From: an uncultured Thermoleophilia bacterium
Lineage (GTDB): Bacteria > Actinomycetota > Thermoleophilia > RBG-16-64-13
Length of the DNA: 64,000 nucleotides
Direction of reading: 5' to 3'
NCBI GenBank assembly: GCA_963749535.1
Contig: CAVVNF010000018.1
Location: 3,877 to 67,876 of the forward strand
The position numbers and the translations under genes are program-made. The notes beneath the pieces were generated by a model. That model was not told the origin of the DNA and ran no database searches. It saw nothing but the letters and a program-made list of their open reading frames with translations. Shown here in pieces: positions 4,905-64,000 of the stretch (position 1 is the first letter of the stretch; each line of letters opens with the position of its first letter).

Positions 4905-7078
4905 GCGGCCTGGAACATCTCAAGCAAGAGCGGCCCATCGTTGAGGAGCTTGCCCGCCGGGGCCATCGGCATGTGAGTAAGTTCGGCCGGCAGGTGACGT
5001 TCCGCTGTCCATTTCCCGACCATGAGGACACCGAGCCCAGCTTCGTCGTGTACACCGATACGAACACCTTCCGCTGCTACGGGAGTTGCGGCAGGCATGG
5101 CTCGGTGCTGGACCTCGTCATGGGCCTCGAAGCGGTGGAGCTGAAAGAAGCGGTGCGGATCCTCGGGGGCAACGTTCATGATCTAAACAGCCACAACGAT
5201 GCCACACCCCGAAAGCGCGCCGACAATGAACCCCCGGTTTCCCCTCCGGTGAAGGCTGTTACACCATTACACCTCGGTGGCGGCATCACCCTAGAGCAGC
5301 TCGGTGCAGCGAAAAAGTTGGAAACGAGCTTCCTGGAGAGTCTGGGATGCCGTAACAGCAAGCGTAACGGCGTAGCGCACGTGACCATCCCCTACTACAG
5401 CGAGACCGGGGAAACCCTCTCGGTGAGGTCGCGTCTTGCGCCCACTGGAGGGCGCTTCCGCTGGCGAGCGGGCGACAAGGTGCACCTCTATGGACTTGAC
5501 CGCCTGGACTCCGCCCACGAGCGCGGCTGGGTGCTCCTTGTCGAGGGCGAGTCGGACTGCTGGACCTGCTGGCAGCATGGACTACCCGCCCTGGGGATCC
5601 CCGGAAAGACCACCTGGCGCAGTGAATGGGTCGCCAAGTTGGCCGGGTTGGACACATACGTGTGGCGGGAGCCGGATGCAGAGGACCTGGTGGAGCGCAT
5701 GGCCCCGGACCTGCCCAACCTCCGGGTGATCGTCGCTCCCCAGGGCACCAAGGATCTCTCCGAAGCACACCTTGCCGGACAAGACGTGGTCGCCTTGATT
5801 GACCAACTGCGAGCGAGAGCCCCGCGGGCTAGTGAGGTACTCCGCGAACGCTTAGACGGTGAACTCGCCGATGTCATGGAGAGAGCCAGAGCGGTCCTGG
5901 AGGCCACCGACCCGCTGGAGCTGGTGAGCAGCGCTATTCGGGCACAAGGCTACGGGGGAGACCTCAAGCCGGCGGAACTTACCTACATTGCCTGTACTGG
6001 CAGGGTACTCGCAATGCGACGGGGATCTATGCCCGCTCACCTCCTGCTGCTGGGCCCGGCCTCCGCCGGCAAGAGCTTCACCAAGAATATCGCCTTGCGG
6101 CTGATGCCACAGGAGGCCTACCACGAGATTGACGCCGGATCCCCGCGGGTGCTCATTTACGACGACGCCCCTCTGGAGCATCGGGTGCTCGTCTTCGGGG
6201 AGGCGGACTCCCTACCCGCCGGCGAAGACAATCCAGCCGCGTCCGCTGTCCGCAACCTCTGTCAAGACCATCACCTCCACTACAAGGTGACCGTGCGCGA
6301 CGCGGAGACGGGCGACTACATCGTGCGCGATGTACGCAAGCCCGGACCGACCACGCTCGTGACCACGGCGGTGAGGCGCCTCGGGCCCCAGCTCGACACC
6401 CGTCTTTTCATCCTGGAAGTGCCCGATGATCAGAGCCAGATCGGAAGTGCACTCCGGGCACAGGCCGCTCTTGAATTACAAGGGGGAATCCCGGACCCGG
6501 ATCCGGCCCTCATCGCCTATCAGCTCTACCTGCAGCTCCGTGCTCCGTGGGATGTGGTCGTGCCCTTCGCAGACCAGCTGGCGGAACATATCGCTCGGCA
6601 ACCGATGGAAAGTCGAGTCGTTCGGGACTACGCCAGGTTGCTCACACTCATCAAGGCCGTCGCTGTGCTCCGTCACCACCACCGCCAGCGGGATGAACGA
6701 AGCCGACTGGTGGCCGAACCTGCCGACTACATCAAAGTTTACGAGCTGGTGGGAGAGGTCTACAAGGCAAGCGCCACGGGCGCCAGTCGCGGGGTGCGGG
6801 AAGCGGTTGAGGCGGCGTCAGAGCTGCTGATGGAGCAGCAGGCGCCAGTTACAGTCAGCCAAATAGCCGCCCAACGCGGATGGTCAAAAATGGCCGCCTC
6901 CCGCAGAGTGGCAGCGGCTCTCAAAGGCGGCTGGCTCACCAACTCAGAGACCAGACGGGGATACCCCTACCATTTGGGCATCGGAGAACCGTTACCATCA
7001 GAAACCGGCTTGTTACCGCCAGAATCGCTGAGGTGTAACACCGTAACGGTCGCTACCGCCGAGAAGACTCTGGTATGA
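4901..7078 (+). CDS. primase-helicase (CHC2 zinc finger + Toprim-like + P-loop NTPase), 725 aa
   Basis: Zinc finger FRCPFPDHEDTEPSFVVYTDTNTFRCYGSCGRHG. Toprim-like VLLVEGESDCWTCWQHGLPALGIPG. Walker A LLLLGPASAGKSF. Confidence 0.85.
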   Translation: MSGLEHLKQERPIVEELARRGHRHVSKFGRQVTFRCPFPDHEDTEPSFVVYTDTNTFRCYGSCGRHGSVLDLVMGLEAVELKEAVRILGGNVHDLNSHNDATPRKRADNEPPVSPPVKAVTPLHLGGGITLEQLGAAKKLETSFLESLGCRNSKRNGVAHVTIPYYSETGETLSVRSRLAPTGGRFRWRAGDKVHLYGLDRLDSAHERGWVLLVEGESDCWTCWQHGLPALGIPGKTTWRSEWVAKLAGLDTYVWREPDAEDLVERMAPDLPNLRVIVAPQGTKDLSEAHLAGQDVVALIDQLRARAPRASEVLRERLDGELADVMERARAVLEATDPLELVSSAIRAQGYGGDLKPAELTYIACTGRVLAMRRGSMPAHLLLLGPASAGKSFTKNIALRLMPQEAYHEIDAGSPRVLIYDDAPLEHRVLVFGEADSLPAGEDNPAASAVRNLCQDHHLHYKVTVRDAETGDYIVRDVRKPGPTTLVTTAVRRLGPQLDTRLFILEVPDDQSQIGSALRAQAALELQGGIPDPDPALIAYQLYLQLRAPWDVVVPFADQLAEHIARQPMESRVVRDYARLLTLIKAVAVLRHHHRQRDERSRLVAEPADYIKVYELVGEVYKASATGASRGVREAVEAASELLMEQQAPVTVSQIAAQRGWSKMAASRRVAAALKGGWLTNSETRRGYPYHLGIGEPLPSETGLLPPESLRCNTVTVATAEKTLV

Positions 7079-48147: not shown

Positions 48148-48227
48148 TTTTGTGCGACTTTGCACTTGACTCCTATACCCGCAAAGAGTAATTTGTGAAA
48201 CACGTAACAGTGTTACTCATGTAACGG
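48148..48227. promoter_or_regulatory. three Rex-box-like inverted repeats overlapping a candidate promoter, in the divergent intergenic region
   Basis: Box C is TTTTGTGCGACTTTGCACTT (48148-48167). Candidate promoter is TTGACT (48166-48171), 17 nt, TAATTT (48189-48194). Box A is TTGTGAAACACGTAACAG (48193-48210). Box B is GTGTTACTCATGTAACGG (48210-48227). Compare the Rex consensus TTGTGAA-N4-TTCACAA / TTGTTAA-N4-TTAACAA. Confidence 0.35.
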
Positions 48228-48268: not shown

Positions 48269-49354
48269 GTGGCTCAGGCGGGAAAGCCAATAGTGTCTCG
48301 AAAGACGGTGGGGAGGCTCAGCCTCTACCGTCGGCTCCTGGATCTCCTCCGAGAGTCCGGGACCATGCATGTGTATTCCCATCAGCTGGCGCATCTGGCC
48401 GGGGTGAGCGCGGCCCAGGTACGGCGAGACTTCATGACCATCGGCTACTCGGGCAGCCCGAACCGCGGCTATGAGGTCAAGACGTGTCTCGAGAGCATCG
48501 GAAGCCTGCTCGACGGATCGGGCTGTCAGGACGTGGCTCTCGTGGGAGTCGGGCGTCTCGGCCGGTCCCTACTGGCCCACTTCTCGAACAAGCAACAGAT
48601 GCTGCGCATCGCCGTCGCCTTCGACACCGACCCAGCCGTCGTCGGCGGATCGTTGGACGGTTGTGAGATTCACGCAGTCGAGACCATCGAGAAAGTCGTG
48701 GACGAAAGAGGGATCCGCATCGGTATCCTCGCCGTGCCTCCGGAGGCAGCGCAGCCGGCGGCAGCCGCGCTGGTACGAGCCGGCGTGAGAAGCATCGTGA
48801 ATTTCGCGGCGGTTCCCCTCCGCGTCCCCGACGATGTCTTCGTGGACTATATGGACATCACGTCCGCCGTCGAGTCCGCGGCATTCTTCGCCCGGGACGA
48901 CGGCGACAAGGATTCGGCCCCTGAGGACGTGCCCGAGACCGAGATGGACCCCATCATCCGCACCATCGATTCGCTTTTGGCGAGGACGAACATGAAGCTC
49001 GAAGAATTGGCGCAAAGGATCGGTGCCCGCGTGCTCGCTCCGGGAGCCCCGGGCGGCACCGAGGTGACCAAGGTCTACGCAGGCGACCGCGTGAGCGACC
49101 TGCTCAACGAGGCATCCAACAAGACCTTGCTTGTGACCAACCTGGCGAACCTGCAGATGGTGCGGGTCGCGGAACTGATGGACGTGCCGGGTATCTGCTT
49201 CGTCGACGGGATCGACCCGGAACCGGACATCATCGAGCTCGCACGGGCCAACAACACGGTGATCCTGGTCTCACCCGTGGGAGTCTTCGAGACCTGCGGC
49301 CTTATCTTCCAGATCCTTTCCGAAAACGGCCAGAAACAGGCGGAGCCGCAATAG
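48269..49354 (+). CDS. rex: redox-sensing repressor Rex fused to a C-terminal DRTGG-like domain (361 aa, intact)
   Basis: Rex region: TVGRLSLYRRLL...YSHQLAHLAGVSAAQVRRDF...VALVGVGRLGRSLL...VNFAAVPL. About 130 extra C-terminal residues follow: GDRVSDLLNEASNKTLLVTNLANLQMVRVAELMDVPGICFVDGIDPEPDIIELARANNTVILVSPVGVFETCG. Confidence 0.85.
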   Translation: MAQAGKPIVSRKTVGRLSLYRRLLDLLRESGTMHVYSHQLAHLAGVSAAQVRRDFMTIGYSGSPNRGYEVKTCLESIGSLLDGSGCQDVALVGVGRLGRSLLAHFSNKQQMLRIAVAFDTDPAVVGGSLDGCEIHAVETIEKVVDERGIRIGILAVPPEAAQPAAAALVRAGVRSIVNFAAVPLRVPDDVFVDYMDITSAVESAAFFARDDGDKDSAPEDVPETEMDPIIRTIDSLLARTNMKLEELAQRIGARVLAPGAPGGTEVTKVYAGDRVSDLLNEASNKTLLVTNLANLQMVRVAELMDVPGICFVDGIDPEPDIIELARANNTVILVSPVGVFETCGLIFQILSENGQKQAEPQ

Positions 49355-49361
49355 CCAAGCC

Positions 49362-51375
49362 ATGGAATTCGTCTCCTACGACATAAAGAGCAGTGACTTC
49401 GACGCGGCGGGAGCGGCTTCCAGCGCCATCAAGGAGCAGCTGAAGCGTATCGGGGCGGACGCGGAGAGCATCCGGCGCACGATGATCGCAGCGTACGAAG
49501 CGGAGATGAACGTGGTGATCCACGCGCATGGCGGCCGCCTGGAAGCCTCGCTTTCGGACGACCGCCATCGACGTCGATGTGATCGATGAGGGGCCGGGCA
49601 TCCCCGACATCGAGCTGGCCATGAAGGAAGGTTTCTCCACGGCCAGCTCCGAGGCGCGGGCCCTCGGCTTCGGGGCGGGCCTGGGTCTGCCGAACATCAA
49701 GAAGAACAGCGACCGCCTGAGGGTGACCTCCCGCGTGAGCGAAGGCACCCGGGTGAGCTTCACCGTCTACCTCAAGCGAGAATCGGCGTGTGCGCCGAGC
49801 ATCGTCTCCCTCGCTGCCTCGACGGAAGACTGCCGCGATTGCCGCCGCTGTCTGGTGGCCTGTCCGACACATGCGGTGCGGGTGAGGAACGGCCGGCCCT
49901 CTGTCCTGGAGCACCTATGCGTGGACTGCACGAGCTGTATCGCAGCGTGCTCGTCGAAGGCCCTCACCGTGCGAGACGATGTCTCCTCGTTGGCGGAGCT
50001 GAAGAACATCGGCGAACTGGTCCTGGCGGTGCCTCCCGGGCTCCTTGCCAGTTGCGGAACCGGGCTTTCCCCTGCCCGGGTTCTCCAAGGATTGCGGAGG
50101 CTCGGATTCGCGGACGTCATCACCGTGGCGCCCTTTGAGCGCGCGCTCCGGCGGGCGGTCTTGACTTCGGCCAACGAGAACGCTGGGGACGGCCCGGAAG
50201 CACGGGAACTACCGATCATATCCCCGGCCTGCCCCGCCGTGGTGAACCTCATCGAGCTCAAGTATCCTTCGCTCCTTCCGCAGTTGGCACCTTTTGACTC
50301 CCCCTGGGAGGCCCTGCAGGCATCCCAGGCCGATCGCCGCGTCGCGTACGTCGTGTCCTGCCCAGGCCAACGCTCGGTACTCGTGGCCCACGAACCGGCG
50401 GACAGCGCAGGCAGCTGCGTCGAGCCAGGTGCCGTGTATCTCTCCCCCGGCCTCGTCCGCGATGCGGTCATGGCTCTTCTGGCTGCGGAGGGCCGAGAAC
50501 CCGCGACAGCCGGGCCGGCTGGAAGCGCAAAGGCGAGCGCAGAAGGCGGGGCCGACCACTCGACGGCGGACCTCGGACACGTGCTCACCGTCACCGGCAT
50601 GGAGCACGTCATGGCTGTGCTCGAGCAGATCGAGAACGGGCTGTTGACCGATGCCGAGGTGGTTGAACTCTACGCGTGCGCAGGTGGCTGCTTCGGCTCG
50701 CCGCTCCTACCCCTGGATTTCCACGTGACTGCCCGTCGTTGGGCCCAACAGGAATCGTCAACAGCCTGCTGCGGCGAAATGCCGGCAGCGCTCTCCCGGC
50801 GGCGCCCTTACGCCGCTCGTCCGGGGATACGCCTGGACCCGGACATGGCGCGCGCCATCGAAAAGCTCGGCCGGATGCAAGCGCTCACCCGTTCGCTACC
50901 CGGCAAAGACTGTGGTACGTGCGGCGCCCCCACCTGTGCAGCGCTGGCCGAGGACATCGTGATGGGGCGAGCGACGGCTGAGCTCTGCCCCTACTGCGAT
51001 AACGAGAAGGAGGCGCGGGACATGAGACTGCAGGAGCTCGTCCAGAGCTTTGGATCTCCGGAACTCACCCCCAGCGTGGCCGGCAACAACGACGCCGAGA
51101 TCGCGTACGGCTATGCCTCCGATCTGCTCAGCGACGTGCTCGCCCACGCCCCCGCCGGCGGGGTGCTCGTCACGCTGCAGGTGCACCTCAACGTGATCGC
51201 CGTGGCGAGCCACGCTGGCCTGAGGGCCGTCATCTTCTCGTCCGGCCGCCTCCCCGAGGACGACATCTCTCCCGAGGCGGCGGACGAGGGCCTCTCTCTC
51301 TTCGTGTCACCGGCGGACACCTTCGACATCGTCGGCCGACTGTATCAACTCGGGGTGAAGGGACGGGCTACGTGA
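49362..51375 (+). CDS. multidomain Fe-S sensor-like protein: GHKL (RsbW-like) ATPase + 2x[4Fe-4S] ferredoxin + HydS-like [FeFe]-hydrogenase H-domain homolog + Cx2Cx4Cx16C Fe-S motif + DRTGG-like domain; one frame break near 49560
   Basis: GHKL: EAEMNVVIHA, DEGPGIPD, GFGAGLGLPNI. Ferredoxin: CRDCRRCLVACP and CVDCTSCIAACS. H-domain-like motifs: ISPACPAVVN (L1-like, relay Cys replaced by Ala), VVSCPGQ (L2-like), ELYACAGGCFGSP (L3-like). Fe-S motif: DCGTCGAPTCAALAEDIVMGRATAELCP. DRTGG-like tail: SDLLSDVLAHAPAGGVLVTLQVHLNVIAVASHAGLRAVIFSSGRLP. Confidence 0.8.
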
Positions 51376-51396
51376 GCCGCGCCCCACACGGAAATC

Positions 51397-52178
51397 ATGC
51401 CTGAAGGACGGACGAGATTCCATGGCAGACCGCCTGCGACATGCGCAGCGGACTTGCACATCCACACGGCGCTGTCGCCCTGTGCGGAGCGACGAGATGA
51501 CGCCCCGCGCCATCGTGGAGGCTGCCTTGGCCCGAGGGCTTGACATGATCGCCATCTGTGACCACAACAGCGCGCGCAACGCCGCCGCCGTGCAGGAGGC
51601 GAGCGGGGAACGCCTGGCCGTTCTCGCCGGCATCGAGATAACGAGCGCGGAAGAGGTCCACGTGGTCGGTCTTTTCCCCGACGCGGCCGCGGCCGAGGCG
51701 GCGGGGTCGGAGATCGCTCCGCTCCTTGGCGACGCCGATAGCGGCTACACGGCGTTCTTCGGCGAACAGCAGGTCCTCGACGCCGAGGGCCGCGTACTCG
51801 ACACCGAGACTGCGGCGCTTGCCTTCGCCACTTCGCTCGAGGTGGACGCGGTGGTCGATCTGGTCCACCGGCACGGCGGTCTGGCGGTGGCGGCGCACAT
51901 CGACCGCAGGGCTTTCAGCGTGTTCTCCCAGCTCGGGTTCTTTCCGACCGAATCGGGTTTCGATGCGGTGGAGATCACTCCGTTCACCGGGGATGATTCG
52001 CCGCGAATGGCGGAATTCGCAGGCTCTGGGCCTGCCCATGACTGCAGCTCGTCCGACAGCCACTACCTCGAAGACATCGGGGCTGCCACGACGAGACTCA
52101 CCGTCGAAGTAGCGACCTTCGCCGAGCTGGCCCTGGCTTTCGCCGGCGCCGAAGGGAGGGCGATCGGTCGATGCATGA
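51397..52178 (+). CDS. PHP-domain phosphoesterase; frame break near 51490; 3' end uncertain
   Basis: ADLHIHTALSPCAE then a shift to MTPRAIVEAALARGLDMIAICDHNSARN...GIEITSAEEVHVVGLF...AAHIDR. Confidence 0.7.
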
Positions 52179-52668
52179 TGTGTCCCTCTATCTGCTCGAC
52201 GTCGCTCGAGAACTCAGTGCGCGCAGGCGCGACGCGCATAAACGTTGGTCTTCGCATCGACCACGCTTCCGACGAGTTGGAGCTGACGGTCGATGATGAC
52301 GGACGGGGTTTGAACGTCGACCCCTGAGCGGATCCTCGATCCCTTCTTCACTACGAAAGAAGGCAAGAAGACGGGACTTGGACTAAGCCTCCTGAGAGCG
52401 GAGGCCGAAGCAGCCGGAAGGGGGGCTCACCATCGGTCCCTCCCCCACCCTCGGTGGGGCCCGAGTAGATGTCACCATGCGCCTCGGCCACGTGGACAGA
52501 CCGCCCCTCGGCGATCTGGCCACGACTCTTGTGGTCACGGCGGTGACGAACCTAGATGTCTTGTTCACTATCAGCCTCGAGGGCGATGAGTTCGGGCAAC
52601 CACTCATCGAGGCACCGCTCACCGAAGCGACCGAACTTCTCCTGCACTGCGCGGAGCGGCTCGCATGA
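52171..52668 (+). CDS. stand-alone histidine-kinase-like (GHKL) ATPase domain protein; about 3 frame breaks
   Basis: MHDVSLYLLDV.LENSVRAGATRINVGL...LELTVDDDGRGLNVDP.RILDPFFTTKEGKKTGLGLSLLRAEAEAAG (N, G1 and G2 boxes). No DHp/His box. Confidence 0.65.
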
Positions 52669-52759
52669 GGCAGCGGCAGCCCTTACCAAGAGCGAAACAG
52701 TCGAAGCGCAGCCCAGGCCCGGGGACGCGCATGTTCAGGTCGGCCAAGGAGGCAACGGC

Positions 52760-53323
52760 ATGACGGCGGAGGCAGAGAATCGGGACGTAAAGTGCACGTG
52801 CTGCGAGGAAGCCTCGGAGGAGGAACTTCTCGCACGGCTCGACGACGTCATCGCCGGTACAAGGAAAAGCCAGGAGCTCTGATCCCGGTGCTGCAGCTCG
52901 CCCAGGGCATCTTCGGGTACCTGCCCGAGGTGGCTCTCAAGCAGGTCGCGACGCGAGCATGCGCAAGCCCTACAGCGAAGTGGCCGGCGTGGTGGGCTTC
53001 TACTCGTTCTTCACCACCGTCCCGCGCGGCAAGCAACCTCATCCGCGTCTGCCTGGGCACCGCCTGCTACGTGCGCGGCGGCATGAACGTGCTCGAGTCG
53101 CTCAAGAAGGAGCTGGGCATCGACGTCGGCGAGCACCACGGAGGACCGCGAGTTCTCGCTCGAGGTCGGCTCGCTGCTTCGGCGCCTGCGGCCTCGCCCC
53201 GGTGATCACGGTCGACGACGACGTCCACCACCGCGTCAAGCCGAAGCGCGGATCCGCGAGATCCTCGCCCAGTACGCACGCAGGAAGCCTTGGAAGCTGC
53301 CGTTGCGTGAGAGGAGCGCCTGA
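52760..53323 (+). CDS. hydC: HydC / NuoE-like [2Fe-2S] subunit of a multimeric [FeFe]-hydrogenase; about 3 frame breaks
   Basis: ATG behind AAGGAGG. Motifs KPGALIPVLQLAQGIFGYLP, IRVCLGTACYVRGG, GRCFGACGLAPV (assembled across frames). Stop overlaps the next ATG (TGATG). Confidence 0.85.
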
Positions 53324-53700
53324 TGGCCGACAAGATCAAGAGTGCCGCCGACCTGCTCGCCCTGGCCCAGAAGGCCAAGGCGGACGTCGACCTGCGCTCG
53401 GGCGCCAAGGAGATCACAGGTGACCGTGCACATGGGCACCTGCGGCATCGCCGCCGGCGCCCGCGACGTGGTGGCCGCTTTCCTGCTCCGAGCTGGCCGA
53501 GGCCAGGGCTCGACAACGTGACCGTCGCGCCAATCCGGCTGCGCCGGCCTCTGCGAGAAGGAGCCCATGGTGACCGTCACGTGACGCCGACGGCGCCGTG
53601 TACCACTACGGGCTGCTCGAGACGGAGCAAGGTCCACAAGATCGTCGAGGAACATCTGGTGGGCGGGGTCCCGGTGGACGCCTACCTCATCAAGCATCGT
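53323..53700 (+). CDS. small thioredoxin-like [2Fe-2S] ferredoxin (HndB-like); frame breaks, 3' end approximate
   Basis: MADKIKSAADLLALAQKAK...VTVHMGTCGIAAGARDVVAAF ... GCAGLCEKEPMVTV ... VHKIVEEHLVGGVPVDAYL. Confidence 0.6.
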
Positions 53701-53737
53701 AGCCGTCGATGTGGATCAGAGATCGAAGGAACCAGAT

Positions 53738-56700
53738 ATGAACGAAATCAAGAACCATGTTCTGATCTGCACAGGCGGCGGCTGCATCGCCTCCGGCGCT
53801 CTCGCGGTGAGCGCCGCCTTCACCAAGGAGCTGGAGGACCAGGGCCTCGCCGGGGAAGTCGCGGTCATCGAGACCGGCTGCCTCGGCCCGTGCGCGGTGG
53901 GCCCGGTGGCCCTCGTCTACCCCGACGGCGTCTTCTACCAGAACATCAAGGTCGAGGACGTGCACGAGATCGTGGAGGAGCACCTGCTCAAGGGCCGCGT
54001 GGTCGAGCGCCTCGTGAGCCACGCCCCAGGCACCGACAAGACCTTCGCCGAGATGCAGCGACGTGGAGTTCTTCAACCGCCAGGTGAAGATCGTGCTGCG
54101 CAACTCGGGCATCATCGACCCGCTCAAGGTCGAAGAGTACATCGCCCGCGAGGGCTACCAGGCGCTGGCCAAAGTCCTCACCGAGATGACCCCCGACCAG
54201 GTGGTCGAGCGAAGTGCTTCGCAGCGGCCTGCGCGGCCGCGGCGGCGCCGGCTTCCCCACCGGCCTCAAGTGGAAATTCGCCCGGCAGACCGAGTCCGAC
54301 GTCAAGTACATCCTCTGCAACGCCGACGAAGGCGACCCGGGCGCCTTCATGGACCGCTCGGTGCTGGAAGGCGACCCGCATAGCCTCATCGAGGGCATGG
54401 CCATCGGCGCCTACGCGATCGGCGCGCACGAGGGCTTCGTCTACCTGCGCGCCGAGTACCCGCTGGCCGTGGAGCGCCTCCAGTACGCCATCGACCAGGC
54501 GCGCGACTTCGGCCTGCTCGGCAAAGACATCATGGGCAGCGGCTTCGACTTCGACCTGGAGATCCGCATGGGCTCCGGCGCCTTCGTCTGCGGCGAGGAG
54601 ACGGCCCTCATGAGCTCCATCGAGGGTGGCCGCGGCGAGCCCCGGCCCCGCCCGCCGTTCCCGGCGGTCAAGGGTCTCTGGGACAAGCCCAGCGTGCTCA
54701 ACAACGTCGAGACCTTCGCCAACATCGCCCCGATCATCCTCAAAGGCGCGGAGTGGTTCGCCAGCACCGGCACCGAGAAGAGCAAGGGCACCAAGGTCTT
54801 CGCCCTCGGCGGCGCCATCCAGCACGCCGGCCTGGTCGAGGTGCCCATCGGCATGCAGCTGGGCGAGATCATCTACGAGATCGGCGGCGGCGTCCCCGGC
54901 GACAAGGCGTTCAAGGCCGTGCAGCTCGGCGGCCCTTCCGGCGGCTGCATCCCCAAGCAGCACCTCAACGTGCCCGTCGACTACGAATCGCTGCAGGAGC
55001 TCGGCGCCATCATGGGCTCCGGCGGCTTCATCGTCATGGACGACGACACCTGCATGGTGGACATCGCCCGCTACTTCCTCGACTTCATCCAGGACGAGAG
55101 CTGCGGCAAGTGCCCGCCCTGCCGGGTCGGCACCAAGCGCATGCTCGAGATCGTCACCCGCATCTGCAACGGCGAGGGCGAAGAAGGCGACATCGAGAAG
55201 CTCATCGACCTCGGCAAGACCATCCAGGACACCGCGCTGTGCGGCCTCGGCCAGACGGCGGCCAACCCGGTGCTGTCGCACCATCCGCCACTTCCGCCAC
55301 GAGTACGAGGCCCACATCCGCGACCACTACTGCGAGGCCGGCGTCTGCTCGACCATGTTCAGCGCTCGCTGCTCCAACGCCTGCCCGGCGAGCGTGAACG
55401 TCCCCGGCTTCGTGAGCCTCATCGGCGAGAAGCGCTTCGACGAGGCCTTGACGCTGCACCGCGAGCGCAACCCGCTGGCCAGCATCTGCGGCCGCGTGTG
55501 CTTCCACCCCTGCGAGAGCAAGTGCCAGCGCGCCGCCCTCGACGACGCCGTCGCCATCCGCGGCGCTCAAGCGCTTCATGACCGAGCAGGAGAACGACGC
55601 CGCAACTGCCGAAAGTCCTGGAAAACGCCGAGAACGCCACGCGCAAGATCGCCGTGATCGGCAGCGGGCCGGCCGGCCTCTCCTGCGCCTACTTCCTCGC
55701 CCGTCTGGGCTACAAGCCCACCATGTTCGAGAAAGAGGCCAGCCCCGGCGGCATGCTCGTGCAGGCGATCCCGGCCTACCGCCTGCCGCGGGAGGAGCTC
55801 GGCCGCGAGATCAGCATGATCGAAAGCATGGGCGTCACGATCAAGACCGGCAAGGCGCTCGGCCGCGACTTCACCCTGCACAGCTGAAAGACCAGGGCTA
55901 CGAGGCAGTGTTCCTGGGCGTGGGCGCCCCGCAGGGCGTCGAGCCTCGGCCTGCCCGGCGAGGATGGCGAGGGCGGTCAGTCGACGGCTCTCAGCTTCCT
56001 CGCGCAGTACAACGTGCACGGCGACCGCCTGGGTGGGCGAGCAGGTCGCCGTCATCGGCGGCGGCAACTCGGCCATCGACGCGGCCCGCACCGCCCTGCG
56101 CCTCGGCGCCAAGAAGGTCACCATCCTCTACCGCCGCCAGCGCGCGCAGATGCCCGCCTGGGCGAGGAGATCGACGCCGCCGACCTCGAGGGCATCGAGA
56201 TCATGCCGCTGGTCGCGCCCGAAGGAGATCGTCCGCGACGCGGCCGGCAAGGTTACCGGCGTGCTCTGCCAGCAGATGGTGCTGGGCGACTACGACAGGA
56301 GCGGCCGTCGCCGTCCCGTGGCCGGCCGCAATCCCGACTTCATCGTGGCGTGCGACCAGGTCATCGCCGCTATCGGGCAGTCGCTCGACGCAGACAGGCA
56401 TGCTCGGAGGCTCTTCCGCTCGAGATGCGCAACGGCTGGATCAAGACCGATCGGGCCGACCGGCGCCACCAGTCGTCGACTGGGTCTTCGCCGGCGGCGA
56501 CGCCGCGACCGGTCCCGCATCGGTGGTGGAGGCCATCGCCGCCGGCGAGAAGGCCGCGGTCGCGATCGACGAACGGCTGAGCGGTGCCAACCATGCGTTC
56601 TGGCGCCGCGACGTGGAGGTCGACTGCTACTTCGATCCCGACGCCGATCCCTGCAATACCCCGAGCGGCGGTCGTCGGCTGTGTCGACCCCAGCGTGCGG

Positions 56701-56822
56701 ACCTGCAGCTTCGACGAGGTCGAGCTGCCCTGGGATATGGATGTCGCGCTGGCAGAGGCCAAGCGTGCCTGCGTTGCGACTACGGCAAGGTCCCGGCCCT
56801 CGCTGAGACCAAGGAGATATGA
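53738..56822 (+). CDS. hydB: HydB/NuoF-like flavoprotein subunit fused to a GltD/NfnB-like NAD(P)H oxidoreductase domain; at least 12 frame breaks
   Basis: N-terminal Trx-like [2Fe-2S]: [15 protein letters not shown]...[10 protein letters not shown]. NuoF core: [37 protein letters not shown] continuous ORF piece runs across the junction: [82 protein letters not shown]. GltD-like motifs follow: [67 protein letters not shown]. Confidence 0.85.
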
Positions 56823-56823
56823 G

Positions 56824-58609
56824 ATGCCTGCCCTGACTATTGACGACATCAAGGTCGAGGTGCCCGAAGGCACGACCTTGCTCGACGCCTGCCGCCAGGT
56901 GGGCGCCAGGGTCCCCACTCTGTGCTACCTGGAAGGCGTGCAGTGCCATCGGCGCCTGCCGGGTGTGCCTGGTGGAGGTGGAAGGCGCGCGCGACGCTGG
57001 TCGCCTCCTGCGCTCAACCCGCCACCGAGGGCATGGTGGTCAAGACCAATTCGCCTCGCGTGCGCAAGGGCCGGCAGACCGTGGTCGAGCTGCTCCTGTC
57101 CGAGCACGACGGCGATTGCCAGACCTGCGACCGCAACGGCGACTGCGAGCTGCGCCAGCTTGCCTACGACCTGGGCATCGACGAGATCACGCTACGAGGG
57201 CGAGCGGACCCGCAAGATCGTCGACAGCTCCACCCCGGCCCTCGTCCGCGACACCGGCAAGTGCATCATGTGCCGGCGGTGCGTCACGGTCTGCAACGAG
57301 ATGCAGGGCGTGGGCGCCCTCTTCCCGCAGGATCGCGGCTTTGCCACGGTAATCGGCCCCGCGTTCGCCAGCAACCTCAGCGACGTGGTGTGCGTGCAGT
57401 GCGGCCAGTGCGCGGCCGTCTGCCCCGTCGGCGCGATCACCGAGAACAGCGCGATCGACCAGGTCTGGGCCGCCCTCGACGACCCCGACCAAGCACGTGA
57501 TCGTGCAGACCGCGCCCGGCCATCCGCGGCGCTCTGGGCGAGGAGTTCGGCTACGAGCCCGGCACGCTGGTCACCGGCAAGATGGTCGTCAGCCCTGCGC
57601 CGGCTCGGCTTCGACGCGGTGTTCGACACCAACTTCACCGCCGACCTCACCATCATGGAGGAGGGCACCGAGCTGCTGACCCGCCTGAAGAAGGCCCTGG
57701 TCGACGGCCAGACCGGTGGCGCTGCCCATGTTCACGAGCTGCTCTCCCGGCTGGATCAACTACATGGAGCACTTCAACCCGGACATGCTCGCCAACCTGT
57801 CCACCTGCAAGTCGCCCGCAGCAGATGTTCGGCGCGCTGGCCAAGACCTACTACGCCGAGAAGCTGGGCAAGAAGCCCGAGGACATCGTCGTGGTCTCGG
57901 TCATGCCGTGCACCGCCAAGAAGTTCGAGTGCAGCCGTCCCGAGATGACCGACAGTGGCGTGCAGGACGTCGACATGGTGCTCACGACCCGTGAGCTGGC
58001 GCGCATGATCAAGCAGGCCGGCATCGACTTCGCAGCCTGCCCGACGACAAGATGGACGCGCCGCTGGGCATCTCGCACCGGCGCGGCCGACATCTTCGCC
58101 GTCACCGGCGGCGTGATGGAGGCGGCGCTGCGCACGGCCTACGAGATCGTCACCGGCAAGCCGTTCCCGTTCGAGAACCTGCACGTCAAGCCCATCGCAG
58201 GGCCTCGAAGGCGTGAAGGAGGCCGCGGTGACCGATCGAGGACGACCGTGCCCGAATGGGCGTTCCTCGAGGGCGCCACGCTCAAGGTCGCCGTGGCCCA
58301 CGGCCTGGCGAACGCCCAGAAGGTCATCGACAGGATCCGCAGCGGCGAGGCGCCAGTACCACTTCGTCGAGGTCATGACCTGCCCCGGCGGCTGCATCGG
58401 CGGCGGCGGCCAGCCGCGGCTGACCTCCAACGCCGTGCGCGAGGCCCGCATCCGCGCCATCTACGCCGAGGACGAGGGCCGCGAGCTGCGCAAGTCGCAC
58501 GAGAACCCCGAGGTGCTCAAGCTGTACGAGGAGTTCCTCGGGGCAGCCGCTCGGCGAGAAGTCTCACAAACTGCTGCACACCAAGTACACCGAGAAAGAG
58601 CGCGTCTAG
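56824..58609 (+). CDS. hydA: [FeFe]-hydrogenase catalytic subunit (M3-type with C-terminal small-subunit-like tail); at least 8 frame breaks
   Basis: N-terminal clusters: IGACRVCLVEVEG, LLLSEHDGDCQTCDRNGDCELRQ, GKCIMCRRCVTVC, VCVQCGQCAAVCPVGAI. H-cluster motifs: FTSCSPGW, VMPCTAKKFE, EVMTCPGGCIGGGGQP. Tail: SHENPEVLKLYEEFLG. Confidence 0.9.
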
Positions 58610-58644
58610 TGAGCCAAGGCCCGATGCTATTCGTGGAGACAGCC

Positions 58645-59109
58645 ATGACCGCGGATAGCCCCGCACTCATACTCATCGTCGACGACGACTATGACTTCCT
58701 CGAGATCAACCGCATGATCCTCGAGCGGGCGGGTTATCGCGTTGTCACGGCTTCCGAGCCCGGCCAGGCCCTTGCCAAGATGGAGAACGAGAAGCCCGAC
58801 CTGGTCATCACCGACCTGATGATGACGAGCCTCGACTCAGGCTTCTCGTTCTCCCGCACGATCAAGACCGACCCGCGTTTCGCGGATGTGCCCGTCATCA
58901 TCTCGACGTCGGTGTCGAGCGCCCTTGGCCTCGACTTCCGGCCGCGCTCCGCCGAGGACCTGGCGAAGATGAACGTCGACGCCTACTTCGACAAGCCCCT
59001 CGACGCCCGGCGCCTGCTGGCCAAGGTCGCCGAGCTGCTTGCGGCGCGGCGCGAGGCCGCGGCCGGCCGAGCGTGCGACACGGCCGGCGCCGCACCCGAG
59101 GACAGCTGA
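58645..59109 (+). CDS. single-domain response regulator (receiver only); alternative start 58624
   Basis: LILIVDDDYDFLEI...PDLVITDLMM...VPVIISTS...DAYFDKP. Confidence 0.8.
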   Translation: MTADSPALILIVDDDYDFLEINRMILERAGYRVVTASEPGQALAKMENEKPDLVITDLMMTSLDSGFSFSRTIKTDPRFADVPVIISTSVSSALGLDFRPRSAEDLAKMNVDAYFDKPLDARRLLAKVAELLAARREAAAGRACDTAGAAPEDS

Positions 59110-61140
59110 TGCCGACGGTAGACAATCCGCTCGTCACGACCATCGGCGAGAGGTGCCGCATGTGCTACGCGTGCGTGCGCGAGTGCCCGGCCAAAGCCAT
59201 CCAGATCGTCGACGGCCAGGCCAGCGTCATCCAGTCGCGCTGCATCGGCTGCGGCAACTGCCTCCGGGTCTGCAGCCAGAACGCCAAGCAGGTCCGTCGA
59301 CGACACCGAGCGGGCTTTCGACCTGCTCGGCTCGCGCGACAGCGGCCGCGGCGATCGTGGCCCCGAGCTTCCCGGCCGAGTTCACCGATATCGAGCCGGG
59401 ACGGCTGGTGGCGATGATCCGCGAGCTCGGCTTCGCCGTCCGTGCACGAGGTGGGCTCTCGGCGCCGACCTGGTCGCCCACGAATACGCCAGGCTGCTCG
59501 GAGCGCGAGCCGACAGAGCCGCTACATCGCCACTCCCTGCCCGGCGGTGCAGTCGCTACGTGCGCAAGTATCACCCCGAGCTCACGCAGTTCCTCGGCGC
59601 CGATCGTCTCGCCCATGGTGGCGATGCGCGCGGGCGCTCCGCCACGATCTGGGCCGACGATCTTCAAGTCGTCTTCATCGGCCCCTGCATCGCCAAGAAG
59701 GGCGAGGCCAGCATCGACACGACCCATGTCGAGATCGACGCGGTGCTCACGTTCGCGGAACTGCGCGAGATGTTCGAGCAAGCGGAGATCGTCGCCGGCG
59801 CGGTAGACCCGGACGATGATTTCGATCCTCCGTACGGCGGCGTGGGAGCGGTATTTCCCATCTCGGGCGGACTTCTGCAGACCGCCGGACTTCAACAGGA
59901 CCTGCTGAGCGGTGAGATAGTCGTGGCCGAGGGGCGCGACGAGTTCGTCGATGCGATCAAGGAGTTCGACGTGGCCCACGAGGATGCCCGTCTCTGGACG
60001 TGCTGTCGTGCCAGGGTTGCTTCGCAGGCGTAGGCATGACGACCAAGGATACGAACCTCCAGCGCCGGACCCGCATCAGCAACTATGCCAAGAACCGGAT
60101 CGCCGGATTCAGCGACGAGCAGAGAGCGGACGTCGCCAACGCGTACGAACGTTATGCCGACCTCGACCTTTCCCGCACGTTTCGGCCCGACATCCAGACG
60201 CTGGGCGCGCCTGCGACCGCCGAGGAACTCAAGGAGATCCTGCGAGCGGATGGGCAAGCACAGCGAGGAGGACTTGCTCAACTGCGGGGCCTGCGGCTAC
60301 GACACCTGCCTGGACCATGCGCGTGCGGTTTACGCTGGTGTCGCCGACTCAGAGATGTGCCTTCCCAGCACCATCGAGCAGCTGCGCGCCGCCTACGGCC
60401 AGCTCGAGGAGTCTCACCGCTCGCTGGAGGAAGCCAAGGAAGCTCTCGAGAAATCGGGCAGGCTCGCGAGCATGGGTCAGCTGGCCGCCGGCATCGCCCA
60501 CGAGGTGAACAATCCGCTCGGCATCCTGCTGCTGCATGCCAATCTCGTGCTCGAAGAATGTGAGGAGCAATCCCAGGTCCACGAGGACCTCGAGACCATC
60601 GTCGACCAGGCGAACCGCTGCAAGCGCATCATCTCCGGTCTGCTCAACTTCGCCCGCCAAAGCCGGGTGGTCCGCCAGCCGACCAACCTCGTCGATCTGG
60701 TGCAGAAGGTACTGCACACCACTCCGATCAGCGAGGGCATCGAGGTGCGGGTCGACGACCAGCTGGAAGACCCGGTGGCCGAGATCGACTCGGATCAGAT
60801 AGTCCAGGTGCTTACGAACTTGTTGAGCAACGCCCAGCACGCGATGCCCGAGGGCGGCAGCATCGTGGTCGGATTGAGCGACAAGCCGGAAGAGGTCATC
60901 ATCCAGGTCACCGACAGCGGCAGCGGGATCCCGGACGAGAACATGGCGAAGCTGTTCGACCCGTTCTTCACCACCAAGCAGGTGGGCATGGGCACCGGCC
61001 TGGGGCTGGCCGTGACCCACGGCATCGTCAAGATGCACCGCGGCCAGATCACGGTCCAATCCAACCAGGATCCGGAAAAGGGCCCGACCGGCACCACATT
61101 CACGGTCAGCTTGCCGCGTTACGAGGAGCGCCCGGCCTAA
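59109..61140 (+). CDS. sensor histidine kinase whose input is ferredoxin + HydS-like H-domain homolog + Cx2Cx4Cx16C motif; at least 5 frame breaks in the N-terminal half
   Basis: Ferredoxin: CRMCYACVRECP and CIGCGNCLRVCS. H-domain-like motifs: IATPCPAV (L1-like), VVFIGPCIAKKGE (L2-like), DVLSCQGCFAG (L3-like). Fe-S motif: NCGACGYDTCLDHARAVYAGVADSEMCLP. A coiled coil leads straight to the kinase: H box AAGIAHEVNNPL, N box LLSNAQHAM, G1 DSGSGIP, G2 GTGLGLAV. TGATG overlap with the receiver gene. Confidence 0.8.
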
Positions 61141-61162
61141 AACGGCGAAAGTTGAGGACCTC

Positions 61163-62353
61163 GTGGGATCTCAGGAGCAAGTGGTCAGAGTCGCCATGGT
61201 GGACGACGAGGAGCCGCTCTGCCTGGGCGTGCGCCGCATTCTTGCCAAATACAACGTGCACGTGCCCGATGTCAGTGTCGACGCTTCCTACGATTTCACG
61301 TACTTCACCACCGGGGAGCGCTTCCTGGAAGCGATTGCCGCGGGCGACCAGTTCGACCTCCTCCTCTGGACCTCAAGCTGCCCGGGATGAGTGGGCTGGA
61401 TATCCTGACCGTGCTCAACCATCAGAACCGGCCGATCCTCACCATCATGATCACCGCGTACGCCACCTTCGAGACGGCGGTCCAGGCTACCAAGCTCGGA
61501 GCCTACGACTTCCTGCCCAAACCGTTTTCCCCGGACGAGCTCCGGTACGCGGTCCGCAAAGCCACCGACCAGTTGATCCTCAGCAAGGAGGCCCGGCGGC
61601 TGGCGGAGGAGAAACGTCAGGTTCGCTTCAACTTCATATCCGTCCTGGCCCACGAGCTCAAAGCACCGCTCAATGCCATCGAGGGCTACCTCCGGATCTT
61701 GCAGACCGACGAGCCACCCGAGCGCAAGCAGATGATCGATCGGAGCCTGATCCGGCTGGATGGGATGAAGAAGCTTATCTTCGACCTCCTCGACCTCACG
61801 CGTATCGAGTCCGGCCAGAAGGTGCGTAATTTCGTTCCGGTGGATGTCCGAGCGCTCGCGAAATCGGCGGCGGACCTGTTCTCGGCCGAGGCGGCGGAAC
61901 GGCACATCACGATCGACTTGAAGCCAGAGGGCCCGGTGGAGATGGTGGCGGATCCCAGCGAGATCGAGATCGTCCTCAACAACCTCATATCGAACGCGGT
62001 CAAGTACAACCGAGACGGCGGCAGCGTGACGGTCGAGATCCGTCGGCGACGACGGAACGCTCAAAGTCTCTGTGACCGACACCGGCATCGGCCTGGCTCC
62101 CGAGGAGGCCGCCAAGCTCTTCTCGGAGTTCGTCCGCATCAAGAACGAGGACACCATCAAGGTCATCGGCAGCGGCCTGGGGCTCTCCACCGTCCGCAAG
62201 CTCGCTCAACTTTACGGCGGAGATGCAACGGTCGTCAGTACGAAGGGGTCGGGGAGCACGTTCACCGTGACCTTACACGATACCCTGCCTGGTCTACCGC
62301 CTCCGGCCAAAACGCCGGCAGAGCGCGACGTCGAAGCCGGAACGGTCCGTTAG
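61163..62353 (+). CDS. hybrid receiver-histidine kinase (REC-HisKA-HATPase); two frame breaks
   Basis: Receiver: VAMVDDEEPL...DLLL.DLKLPGMSGLD...FLPKPF. Kinase: H box ISVLAHELKAPLNAI, N box LISNAVKYN, G1 DTGIGL, G2 GSGLGLS. Confidence 0.8.
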
Positions 62354-62382
62354 CAAGCGCGACGATCTTTCCTCCCTATCCG

Positions 62383-63063
62383 CTAGATCTTCTTGAGCAG
62401 TGACTCAACAAGACCATAGACATCTTCTTGCCGCCTGCATCCGCAAAGCCCGGCGGCCGCGGCCAGTCCTTTGTATTCGGCTACCCGCTGCGGCTCATCC
62501 ATCGCCAGCACCGACTGCGGGGTCTGTCCCTTACTTGCCAGCTCAGTGCTGAGCGAAGCGAGGATCCCACTCAGTGCGCCGGTCCCCTCGCTCGGCGCGT
62601 GCGGGTAGACAGTGCTGGTCTTGTCGTACTTCACGAACTCCTTCTTGCCGCCGGCCTCGAAGATGCCTTCCCAACGCTCCGTTTCCGAGTCCAGCGCATA
62701 GGTCTTGACTTCCTCGGCCCCGATTATCACCGCCTCCACCACGTCCCTCGGCGTCCTCTCGACGATGCAGAGCTCCGGGTATTCTCCGCCCACATCCAGG
62801 GACAGCCGGCCTCTGTCCTCGATTCGCTGGATAACGTAATACCTCAACAGCTCAGCGGCGTCTGCGTCCACCCCGAGCACTTCTTGCCAGCCGTCTCTCC
62901 ACCGGAGGAGGAGGTACTGTTTCGCCGCACCCACACTCACCGATGGCGGCACCAGCCCAAGCTCGGCCAATCCAAGCCACAGCCGGCCGTCCACCTTGCC
63001 GAACTCGACTTCCTTGGTGGAGCCATCTTCGTACGCTACGACCAATCGTTTTGGCTGACTCAT
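62383..63063 (-). CDS. hypothetical protein (226 aa), intact
   Basis: ORF only, 4 nt from the upstream HAD-like gene. Confidence 0.45.
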   Translation of the reverse strand: MSQPKRLVVAYEDGSTKEVEFGKVDGRLWLGLAELGLVPPSVSVGAAKQYLLLRWRDGWQEVLGVDADAAELLRYYVIQRIEDRGRLSLDVGGEYPELCIVERTPRDVVEAVIIGAEEVKTYALDSETERWEGIFEAGGKKEFVKYDKTSTVYPHAPSEGTGALSGILASLSTELASKGQTPQSVLAMDEPQRVAEYKGLAAAAGLCGCRRQEDVYGLVESLLKKI

Positions 63064-63067
63064 CTCT

Positions 63068-63805
63068 TCACCCCACCGGCCTGATGATGTTTTTCAATTC
63101 CGAAAGATGGCGAATCTCGCAGGAGGCATTGGAAGGGGCGTGAAAGATATAGCCCGAATACTGGATCGCCTGGAATCCGCGCTCTTGAGCGGGCGTAATA
63201 TCCGACCACTCCTTGTCGCCGACGATGACCGCGTCCTCCGGCTCGATGCCGCGCGCGCGCAAATCCGCGGCCAGAATGTCGTACAGGTCGCCGACTTCCT
63301 TGGAGGAGCCCTTGTAGCTCAAGTCGGTCTCGCCGGTGCGCAGGTCGATCTTGCCCTGCGGCGTGATCAACTCGTCGAAGTACTCGATCACGCCCTGTTT
63401 CACGAGGAACCGGCTCACCATGTCTGTGCCGATCGGCCCGAGGGTGCGCTTGAGCTCGGCCACGATAGAGACGGTGATGCCCTGTTCTCGCAGGTATTTG
63501 ATCGCCTCGATGGCGCCGTCCGCGACTTTCAGGTACTTCTGCTCGATACGGGAGAAGATCTCCGTGACCCCGGGCGCGTCGTCGAAGACGTAGCTCATGA
63601 TCTCCGGCCGCGCCTTCTCCTTGATCACAGGGTACGAGCCGTACTTTTCCTTCATCGACCGCCAGCGGCGGCACCGTTCTTCCACCAGCTCCGGCTCCCC
63701 CAGTTGCTTGCTGGTGTCGCCGATCATCCAGTAGGTGCGCTCCGGTGACGAGTCCATCAAGGTCTGCCCGAAATCGATGCCCACCCATTTTGCATGTATC
63801 ACCAT
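63068..63805 (-). CDS. HAD-superfamily-like hydrolase
   Basis: Motif-I-like VGIDFGQTL (second Asp replaced). Motif-IV-like AVIVGDKEWSDI. Rossmannoid spacing fits. Confidence 0.6.
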   Translation of the reverse strand: MVIHAKWVGIDFGQTLMDSSPERTYWMIGDTSKQLGEPELVEERCRRWRSMKEKYGSYPVIKEKARPEIMSYVFDDAPGVTEIFSRIEQKYLKVADGAIEAIKYLREQGITVSIVAELKRTLGPIGTDMVSRFLVKQGVIEYFDELITPQGKIDLRTGETDLSYKGSSKEVGDLYDILAADLRARGIEPEDAVIVGDKEWSDITPAQERGFQAIQYSGYIFHAPSNASCEIRHLSELKNIIRPVG

Positions 63806-63873
63806 GCGGCATGTCTCCTTTTCCGCTAGTACGGCTAAGCAGGTACAGCTAGGCTAGTCCGGCTAGAAGCCTG

Positions 63874-64000
63874 TTAGGCTTCCGGTACGTCAAGGATGTA
63901 GACCACCCCCACGTCGCCATCCACCCTCACGCGCATCCCGGTCTTCAGCTTCTTCGTGCCCTCCACGCAACCGGAGATCACCGGCAACCCATACTCGCGA
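63874..64000 (-). CDS. C-terminal end of a PEP-utilising-enzyme (mobile domain) protein, partial
   Basis: REYGLPVISGCVEGTKKLKTGMRVRVDGDVGVVYILDVPEA then stop. This is typical of the swivel domain of PEP synthase/PPDK-like enzymes. Confidence 0.5.
   Translation of the reverse strand, partial: REYGLPVISGCVEGTKKLKTGMRVRVDGDVGVVYILDVPEA

Follow-up and report, generated by a model that had tools for sequence, protein, structure and literature searches.

The stretch analysed here, called the window, comprises 64,000 nucleotides of a contig (CAVVNF010000018.1) from an uncultured Thermoleophilia bacterium. Positions 58645-62353 carry a three-gene signalling module, predicted to be cytoplasmic, at the 3′ end of a hydCBA [FeFe]-hydrogenase operon (Table 1). 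Its central gene encodes a hydrogenase-like iron-sulfur (Fe-S) input fused to a histidine kinase, which we refer to as the Hyd-kinase; a single-domain receiver precedes it and a kinase with a receiver (REC) domain follows. What we add on this kind of sensor is that the trio occurs across more than 10 phyla beside hydCBA, that fusion to a kinase goes with a CxxC spacing in the L3 motif of the hydrogenase domain (H-domain), and that the distance between the last cluster cysteine and the phospho-acceptor histidine keeps a heptad register.

Table 1. Features of the hydCBA operon and of the adjoining signalling module (window coordinates)
Feature	Position	Strand	Basis or remark
hydC	52760-53323	+	synteny and Pfam matches of the intact relative L001; indels in the window
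small 2Fe-2S-like gene	53323-53702	+	synteny and Pfam matches of L001; indels in the window
hydB fused to a GltD-like domain	53738-56822	+	synteny and Pfam matches of L001; indels in the window
hydA	56824-58609	+	synteny and Pfam matches of L001; indels in the window
single-domain response-regulator receiver, 154 aa	58645-59109	+	intact open reading frame; Pfam Response_reg, E=4.6e-19
hydrogenase-like sensor histidine kinase, about 673-678 aa after repair	59109-61140	+	frame broken in the window
two CxxCxxCxxxC ferredoxin-type [4Fe-4S] motifs (F-domain)	59145-59285	+	Fer4_10/Fer4_7, residues 13-59
H-domain homologue	59299-60050	+	Fe_hyd_lg_C, E=4e-37; alignment to solved hydrogenases; Foldseek
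L1, ATPCP	Cys codon 59538-59540	+	motif in the H-domain
L2, GPCIAKKGE	Cys 59686-59688, Lys 59695-59697	+	motif in the H-domain
L3, SCQGC	60009-60020	+	motif in the H-domain
Cx2Cx4Cx16C accessory cluster motif	60283-60360; last Cys 60358-60360	+	Pfam FeS PF04060, E=2e-8
signalling helix and HisKA/DHp	60361-60666; phospho-acceptor His 60499-60501	+	HisKA, E=2e-12
HATPase_c catalytic domain with N, G1, F and G2 boxes	60787-61119	+	HATPase_c, E=3e-26
REC-HisKA-HATPase kinase, about 397 aa, REC N-terminal to the kinase	61163-62353	+	Pfam; alignment to the L002 orthologue

The sequence-only reading of this DNA had treated 59109-61140 as one protein, but in the window these positions do not form a single open reading frame (ORF). 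After 59109 the coding signal jumps frames repeatedly up to about 60250, from where a long clean ORF runs to the stop at 61140. We read the three-frame translation of 58600-62420 and stitched the frames by eye into a 678-aa protein, which was used for the Pfam analysis and searched against about 5.8 billion proteins. The best match, P0001, is intact and 92% identical. Because plain tblastn with P0001 joined frames of the window in a misleading way, we aligned the two by frameshift-aware dynamic programming instead. This revealed 11 one-base insertions (59298, 59335, 59438, 59454, 59503, 59513, 59556, 59596, 59627, 59655 and 60243) and 1 one-base deletion (59992) in the sensor-kinase gene, ten of the twelve within 59298-59655. 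One extra codon is in frame (KKGE in the window versus KK-R in P0001). The same kind of alignment to the orthologue from locus L002 showed that the REC-kinase gene lacks one base near 61364 and has one extra base near 62053.

L001, the contig that encodes P0001, is 92.4% identical to window positions 49061-61388. Compared with it, the window has 79 extra and 19 missing bases, nearly all of them in 52000-60250, a region with a G+C content of 0.68 versus about 0.61-0.63 elsewhere. With twelve indels in the sensor-kinase gene, two in the REC-kinase gene and dozens in hydC, hydB and hydA, one might assume that the frameshifts are real and that a decaying hydrogenase/sensor cluster is being lost in this lineage. 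The ratio of nonsynonymous to synonymous substitution rates (dN/dS) also rises to 0.37 in the most damaged stretch (codons 1-190), the only place where it does so; this is because local misalignment inflates dN. However, insertions outnumber deletions about 4:1, nearly all the changes are single-base and they are spread over 8 kb of raised GC, while the density of mismatches is even throughout. With the indels removed, the ten genes contain 0 in-frame stops and show dN/dS values of 0.06-0.23, whereas about 100 real indels would bring stops and relaxed substitutions. Two related loci from long-read metagenome-assembled genomes (MAGs), L054 and L073, are fragmented in a similar way. We therefore reject decay as very improbable. 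The frame breaks are best explained by insertion-biased sequencing or assembly error over genes under purifying selection.

We also rejected a reading in which the gene is split near 60243 into an Fe-S/H-domain protein and an independent kinase, the case that the sequence-only reading had named as its own refutation; it retains next to no probability. The break at 60243 falls inside a conserved segment (…EELKEIL/ERMGKH…) that runs on without interruption in 26 of 26 aligned homologues, as it does in over 100 proteins from the databases. Additionally, such a split would sever the Cx2Cx4Cx16C domain from the H-domain, an arrangement never seen in relatives. The direct fusion of the Fe-S input to the kinase, already proposed from the letters alone, is borne out by abundant intact single ORFs of 666-729 aa with the same architecture, and the proposed TGATG overlap of receiver and sensor kinase is present as well: the receiver stop (59107-59109) and the kinase start (59109-59111) share one base. 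For the window copy itself, the sensor-kinase protein should be regarded as a reconstruction validated only by intact homologues. Gene calls in 52000-60250 are unreliable until the sequence is polished.

On the repaired protein, Pfam recognized a Fer4 dicluster (E about 1e-7), Fe_hyd_lg_C at residues 83-309 (covering positions 4-244 of the 245 in the model), FeS (PF04060) at 392-421, HisKA at 457-519 and HATPase_c at 562-672. There was no Pfam match to a PAS domain, and the protein differs in this from the M2f definition, in which PAS follows the accessory cluster. In NCBIfam the input half is nearest to [FeFe] hydrogenases and the kinase half to AtoS and ZraS, but no score comes anywhere near the equivalog cut-offs, and the sensor kinase is therefore a member of no named family. 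Its domains point to a homologue of the HydS-type hydrogenases (group C, "putative sensory") without the usual PAS domain.

For conservation, we used a family alignment of 26 members, which are 59-87% identical to P0001. All 16 presumed cluster-ligand cysteines are invariant in it: those of the two CxxCxxCxxxC motifs, of L1 and L2, both of L3 and the four of Cx2Cx4Cx16C. The four H-cluster cysteines correspond to C142, C190, C297 and C300 of P0001; however, the L3 spacing is CxxC and the GGGQP motif is lost. Equally invariant are the Lys three residues past the L2 Cys (the equivalent of Lys358 in the hydrogenase CpI), an Ala-Pro-Ser triplet aligned to CpI 230-232 and a Pro-Met pair aligned to CpI Pro324-Gln325. 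At the position of the proton-relay Cys299 most members have Pro; some have Ala, one has Thr and none has Cys. By analogy with CpI, we take Lys358, Ala-Pro-Ser 230-232, Pro324 and the second L3 Cys, the one bridging to [2Fe], to be the contacts of the di-iron subsite. Judged by these alignments, the protein would keep all residues for two ferredoxin clusters, a [4Fe-4S] subsite with its bridging Cys, the Lys and Ala-Pro-Ser contacts to the di-iron unit, an accessory cluster and a competent kinase.

Most of what the sequence-only reading had listed for this protein stands. It had named two ferredoxin motifs, whose eight cysteines are invariant, and a Pro in place of the relay Cys (ATPCP), which turned out to be one case of a family-wide Pro, Ala or Thr. 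The shortened L3 (SCQGC) is kept as CxxC across the family, the second motif is an exact Cx2Cx4Cx16C, no PAS domain separates input and kinase, and the HisKA/HATPase kinase is complete, with its H, N, G1, F and G2 boxes. The description of L2 as well kept needs a restriction. KKGE is found in the window and in the most distant members (P0115-P0120), but close relatives have KK-RA instead, which means that the Glu is not conserved throughout the family.

Residue-level comparison with solved structures confirms where L1, L2 and L3 lie. Solved HydA and CpI are matched by phmmer with E-values from 1e-9 to 1e-16, and in the HMMER alignments to solved hydrogenases "ittPCPa" pairs with "tsCCPaw", "iGPCiaKK" with "vMPCigKK" and "lSC.qGCfagvG" with "mtCpeGCisgGGQ". 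An AlphaFold2 (AF2) model of P0001 was built with the 26-sequence alignment and used only for fold assignment and helix boundaries. Its H-domain core is confident, and the predicted local distance difference test score (pLDDT) of its ferredoxin domain lies below 50. By Foldseek the model matches HydA of T. kivui, T. maritima and A. woodii as well as CpI, DdH and CbA5H, with about 430 aligned columns at a probability of 1.0.

The kinase half, of class I (HisKA), is equally well preserved. Invariant in the 26 members are H460, N566/N570, D598-G600-G602, F612-F616 and G624-G626-G628. The nearest solved relatives of the DHp-CA part are ZraS and CckA by both phmmer and Foldseek, to which Foldseek adds HK853. 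In the AF2 model, helix 414-443 begins right at the last cysteine of the accessory cluster and continues into the DHp helix 447-479, which carries His460. An invariant Cys in the second DHp helix (C500 of P0001, window about 60619-60621, motif QANRCKRI, 26 of 26 members) might act as a redox-sensitive thiol or have no more than a structural role.

The last cluster Cys and the phospho-acceptor His are 47 residues apart in all 26 close members. We surveyed this spacing in kinase-fused representatives clustered at 50% identity, 33 of which have fewer than 70 residues between the two positions, too short for PAS or GAF. In 27 of these 33 direct fusions the spacing is 33, 40, 47, 54 or 68 aa and so differs from 47 by whole heptads, if at all. 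Even without the 47-residue class, 11 of 17 keep the heptad register, against 1 in 7 expected by chance. We read this register as the signature of a continuous coiled-coil signalling helix, which argues that the state of the accessory cluster may be passed mechanically to the phospho-acceptor site. Engineered LOV-kinase linkers provide an analogy for a heptad-registered linker.

The protein is far from isolated. The search of about 5.8 billion proteins yielded more than 100 full-length homologues with the same Pfam architecture, all sharing the order of two ferredoxin-type clusters, H-domain, Cx2Cx4Cx16C, HisKA and HATPase; many come from Thermoleophilia and other actinobacterial MAGs. In a distribution scan with one genome per species, where the homologues were all from MAGs, full-length proteins with 37-61% identity over residues about 8-666 were found in more than 10 phyla. 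The taxa include Thermoleophilia, Planctomycetota (with Kuenenia), Myxococcota, Hydrogenedentota, Acidobacteriota, Verrucomicrobiota, Bacteroidota, Chloroflexota/Dehalococcoidales, Elusimicrobia, Sumerlaeota, WOR-3 and Clostridia.

We mapped the neighbours of the Hyd-kinase in 54 loci by phmmer, with the L001 proteins as queries. A single-domain receiver directly adjoins it in 48 of the 54 (38 downstream, 11 upstream). The REC-HisKA-HATPase gene lies no more than three genes downstream in 43, several of the others being cut by contig ends, and hydA lies no more than two genes upstream in 44. Given these counts, the trio is a conserved unit appended to hydCBA. The side on which the receiver lies goes with the form of HydB. 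A HydB-GltD fusion, 1023 aa long in the intact relative, occurs in loci L001-L006, L012, L014, L047, L054 and L073; where HydB is fused, the receiver precedes the Hyd-kinase (8 of 9 loci), and in 37 loci with plain HydB it follows the Hyd-kinase. In L002-L006, L035 and L059 a second hydC-hydB-hydA operon trails the trio or converges on it. A further gene for a single-domain receiver stands ahead of this second operon, so proteins consisting of a receiver alone seem to accompany these hydrogenase operons repeatedly.

To place the input in a wider family, we ran HMMER with the H-domain and FeS region only against 1.84 billion representatives and obtained 487 proteins at E<=1e-30. For 138 of the top 150 hits the L3 spacing was tabulated against the presence of a kinase. 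A CxxC L3 was found in 43 proteins with a full kinase and 42 without one, and a CxxxC L3 in 49 without a kinase and 0 with one; the remaining 4 have another L3, with or without a kinase. The relay position lacks Cys in 84 of the 85 CxxC representatives, Pro (25), Thr (20) and Ala (17) being commonest. Pfam analysis of samples showed that kinase-less CxxC members end in sigma54-AAA+/HTH outputs (with or without PAS), in GGDEF or in GGDEF plus HD-GYP, and that kinase-bearing ones sometimes have PAS or GAF before the kinase. Those CxxxC members that measure 572-626 aa represent the classical HydS type ending in PAS; a single sigma54 fusion with CxxxC also came up, and its motifs are degenerate. 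The equation of the PAS type with CxxxC rests on the 49 sampled representatives, not on characterised enzymes, and the text of Land 2020 does not give the L3 spacing of TmHydS and TamHydS. Since the same input is fused to PAS-kinases, GAF-kinases, sigma54 activators and GGDEF outputs, the Fer4/H-domain/FeS unit behaves as a portable input module, as a sensor would be expected to, and its fusion to a kinase is confined, in this sample, to the CxxC branch.

One may go further and place the kinase-fused proteins in a distinct clade marked by CxxC and endowed with many outputs, apart from the PAS-type HydS. Such proteins would hold a non-canonical H-cluster or none, sense something other than H2 (redox poise, CO or O2) and signal through the heptad-registered helix to the kinase. 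We regard this extended proposal as rather doubtful.

Proteins of this general kind have been catalogued before. HydDB lists the [FeFe] classes C1, "histidine kinase-linked (putative)", C2 and C3, all with an "undetermined role" (PMC5037454). The shared features of HydS are two N-terminal clusters, Cx2Cx4Cx16C, loss of Cys299 and of the proton pathway, changes at Met353 and Met497, and group A operon neighbours; Land et al. proposed that the accessory cluster takes part in signalling (PMC8163306). TmHydS (Thermotoga maritima, group C) and the group D protein TamHydS resemble the window kinase in the two [4Fe-4S] motifs, the four Cys of the H-domain, the loss of Cys299, Met353 and Met497, Cx2Cx4Cx16C and a group A operon neighbour. 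The window kinase differs in having no PAS, a 47-residue helix to HisKA/HATPase, a Pro at the relay position and an L3 of CxxC, in contrast to the CxxxC of the sampled PAS-type clade, where no representative carries a kinase.

Also close to the window kinase are the group C3 "BfuT" proteins of Hydrogenedentota, which have a histidine-kinase domain and are encoded directly downstream of bfuA (mSystems 2024, PMC11406978). In that study the kinase-bearing forms have their best HydDB hits in C3, not C1, the best hit being WP_006928132.1 of Caldithrix abyssi, and similar clusters occur in Bacteroidota isolates (PMC11406978). The sub-type V bfuCBA-T clusters of these three groups share with the window a hydrogenase-like sensor with a histidine kinase directly downstream of hydA/bfuA. 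Three Hydrogenedentota loci in our set (L013, L021 and L023) carry full-length homologues with 50-51% identity and the same gene order; the window kinase is a presumed direct orthologue of WP_006928132.1. The published description of BfuT consists of domain annotation and gene order, and it does not take up receiver or REC-kinase partners, a CxxC signature or the register of the linker (PMC11406978). The Thermoleophilia also differ in having the single receiver upstream and a HydB that carries a GltD-like domain. The kinase-fused sensor is thus already catalogued at annotation level and exists in cultured organisms, and the window copy is a noisy assembly. Literature searches turned up catalogue-level mentions only; neither biochemical nor genetic work on a kinase-fused [FeFe] sensor was found, nor any study of Thermoleophilia sensory hydrogenases.

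Other known systems resemble parts of the module. The [NiFe] sensors HoxBC/HupUV with HoxJ/HupT and HoxA/HupR (HydDB group 2b) likewise use a slow, hydrogenase-derived H2 sensor to control a kinase that feeds back on hydrogenase genes (PMC5037454, PMC8163306), but they have an unrelated metal site and fold, work as separate subunits via a PAS-like domain and have an NtrC-type regulator encoded nearby, which is not the case here. Sigma54 enhancer-binding proteins with Fer4/Fe_hyd_lg_C/FeS inputs, catalogued for Clostridiales, share the three-part input module but have a one-component AAA+ activator as output (PMC6615313). Leptospira LvrB (REC-HisKA-HATPase) has the same domain order as the downstream kinase and was recovered as a fold/family neighbour, and in circuits of the DivJ/PleC-DivK type a single-domain receiver stands between two kinases. 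For both, the likeness is one of layout.

These comparisons bear on the wiring of the module. The receiver upstream and the REC-kinase downstream of the Hyd-kinase had been predicted correctly, and so had the lack of a DNA-binding response regulator: only the 154-aa receiver and the REC-kinase flank the sensor kinase, and in other phyla the conserved module likewise ends at the REC-kinase. The further claim that this is the layout of a multi-step phosphorelay did not survive. Pfam finds no HPt domain in the three module proteins, the first kinase has no C-terminal receiver, and in the second protein REC is N-terminal, preceding the kinase. A classical His-Asp-His-Asp phosphorelay is therefore not supported. 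A cascade with a receiver-controlled second kinase of the LvrB type, or a circuit in which two kinases share one receiver, seems to fit better. The H-boxes also differ, AHEVNNPL in the Hyd-kinase (nearest to AtoS/ZraS) versus AHELKAPL in the REC-kinase (nearest to PhoR/TorS). As the two kinases belong to different HisKA flavours, this suggests that they favour different phospho-acceptors.

Taken together, we consider it fairly probable that the module is built around an H2 or redox sensor kinase, predicted to be cytoplasmic, which controls a kinase cascade with feedback on hydrogenase expression or activity. In such a scheme, H2, or the electron pressure that it reports, would reduce the H-cluster-like site. 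Because the proton-relay Cys is missing, turnover would be slow and the reduced state lasting, as reported for TmHydS and TamHydS. The electron would then move to the accessory cluster, whose last Cys ligand is 47 residues upstream of the phospho-acceptor His, and the redox change might twist or piston the coiled coil and so switch the balance between kinase and phosphatase. The phosphoryl group could pass to the adjacent single-domain receiver, to the REC domain of the REC-HisKA-HATPase protein, or to both. As a second-tier kinase, the REC-kinase may in turn target a regulator whose gene lies elsewhere; alternatively, it may serve the same receiver as a second kinase/phosphatase. The net effect would be feedback control of hydrogenase expression or activity.

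Several observations weigh against this interpretation. The L3 spacing of CxxC is one residue shorter than the CxxxC of all catalytic hydrogenases and of the sampled PAS-type HydS, GGGQP is lost, Gln325 is replaced by Met and Met353 by Gly; the di-iron site may be altered or absent. The AF2 model has a mean pLDDT of only 72, and its linker (431-452) lies below 50. No output regulator was identified, a DNA-binding response regulator not being encoded in the module, and the sensor-kinase gene as sequenced is not translatable. Additionally, H2 binding, the [2Fe] subcluster and the phosphotransfer partners are all putative in the kinase-fused clade.

The same residues point to a rival, a sensor of redox state, O2 or NO that uses Fe-S clusters only. 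Its H-domain homologue would bind just a [4Fe-4S] cluster, as in Nar1/NARFL, and would report the ferredoxin/NAD(P)H poise or oxidants, not H2. The CxxC spacing is present in every kinase-fused member, and the authors of PMC11406978 could "hardly" find the P1-P3 motifs in some group C proteins of Hydrogenedentota. The neighbouring rex gene, too, puts the cluster under redox control anyway. However, little or no variation is seen in the residues presumed to contact only the di-iron subsite, namely the equivalent of Lys358, the Ala-Pro-Ser triplet at 230-232, Pro324 and the bridging second Cys of L3. The synteny with hydCBA is strict, and an H-cluster is assembled even by characterised HydS proteins in which the relay Cys and these Met residues are likewise missing (PMC8163306). 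Assembly of an H-cluster and reaction with H2 have been assayed only in the PAS-type TmHydS and in TamHydS. This leads us to regard a purely Fe-S-based sensor as possible but unlikely.

It is worth stressing why an H2 or redox sensor kinase of this build matters. H2 sensing by group C [FeFe] hydrogenases, and the way the signal leaves them, are still unproven; the studied examples end in a PAS domain and have no known partner. Here the accessory cluster is joined straight to a histidine kinase, which offers a one-protein assay with two candidate phospho-acceptors encoded next door.

In intact relatives the gene order is rex, an HATPase_c_2-Fer4-H-domain-FeS protein, a small protein, PHP and a GHKL ATPase, followed by hydC, the small 2Fe-2S-like gene, hydB-GltD, hydA, REC, Hyd-kinase and REC-kinase. 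A scan of 58000-64000 found no sigma70-like promoter and no convincing terminator inside, so the trio is probably co-transcribed with hydA. A second hydrogenase-like sensor heads the cluster at 49362-51025 (plus strand), with an RsbW-like HATPase_c_2 domain, two Fer4, an H-domain and Cx2Cx4Cx16C. Its L1 reads SPACP, its L2 (VSCPGQRS) is without the Lys358 equivalent and its L3 is CAGGC, that is, CxxxC. With this protein at its head, the catalytic operon is flanked on both sides by distinct hydrogenase-derived sensors.

A search for Rex operators returned nothing with N6 spacing and a single weak site with N4 spacing, upstream of rex only. This site, TTGTGAAACACGTAACAG, lies at 48193-48210 (plus strand), 59 nt upstream of rex (48269-49354). 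One of its half-sites is perfect and its mismatches add up to 3, against about 0.7 such matches per window expected by chance; it may reflect rex autoregulation.

Elsewhere in the window, 24860-27622 (plus strand) encodes a 920-aa molybdoenzyme of the xanthine-dehydrogenase/aldehyde-oxidase family, a fusion of the [2Fe-2S] domains with the molybdopterin-binding subunit that shows no evident connection with the sensor. Near the window start, an integrated mobile element is suggested by a tyrosine integrase (2193-3428, minus strand) together with a protein of 725 aa that bears a DnaG-type CHC2 zinc ribbon (4901-7078, plus strand).

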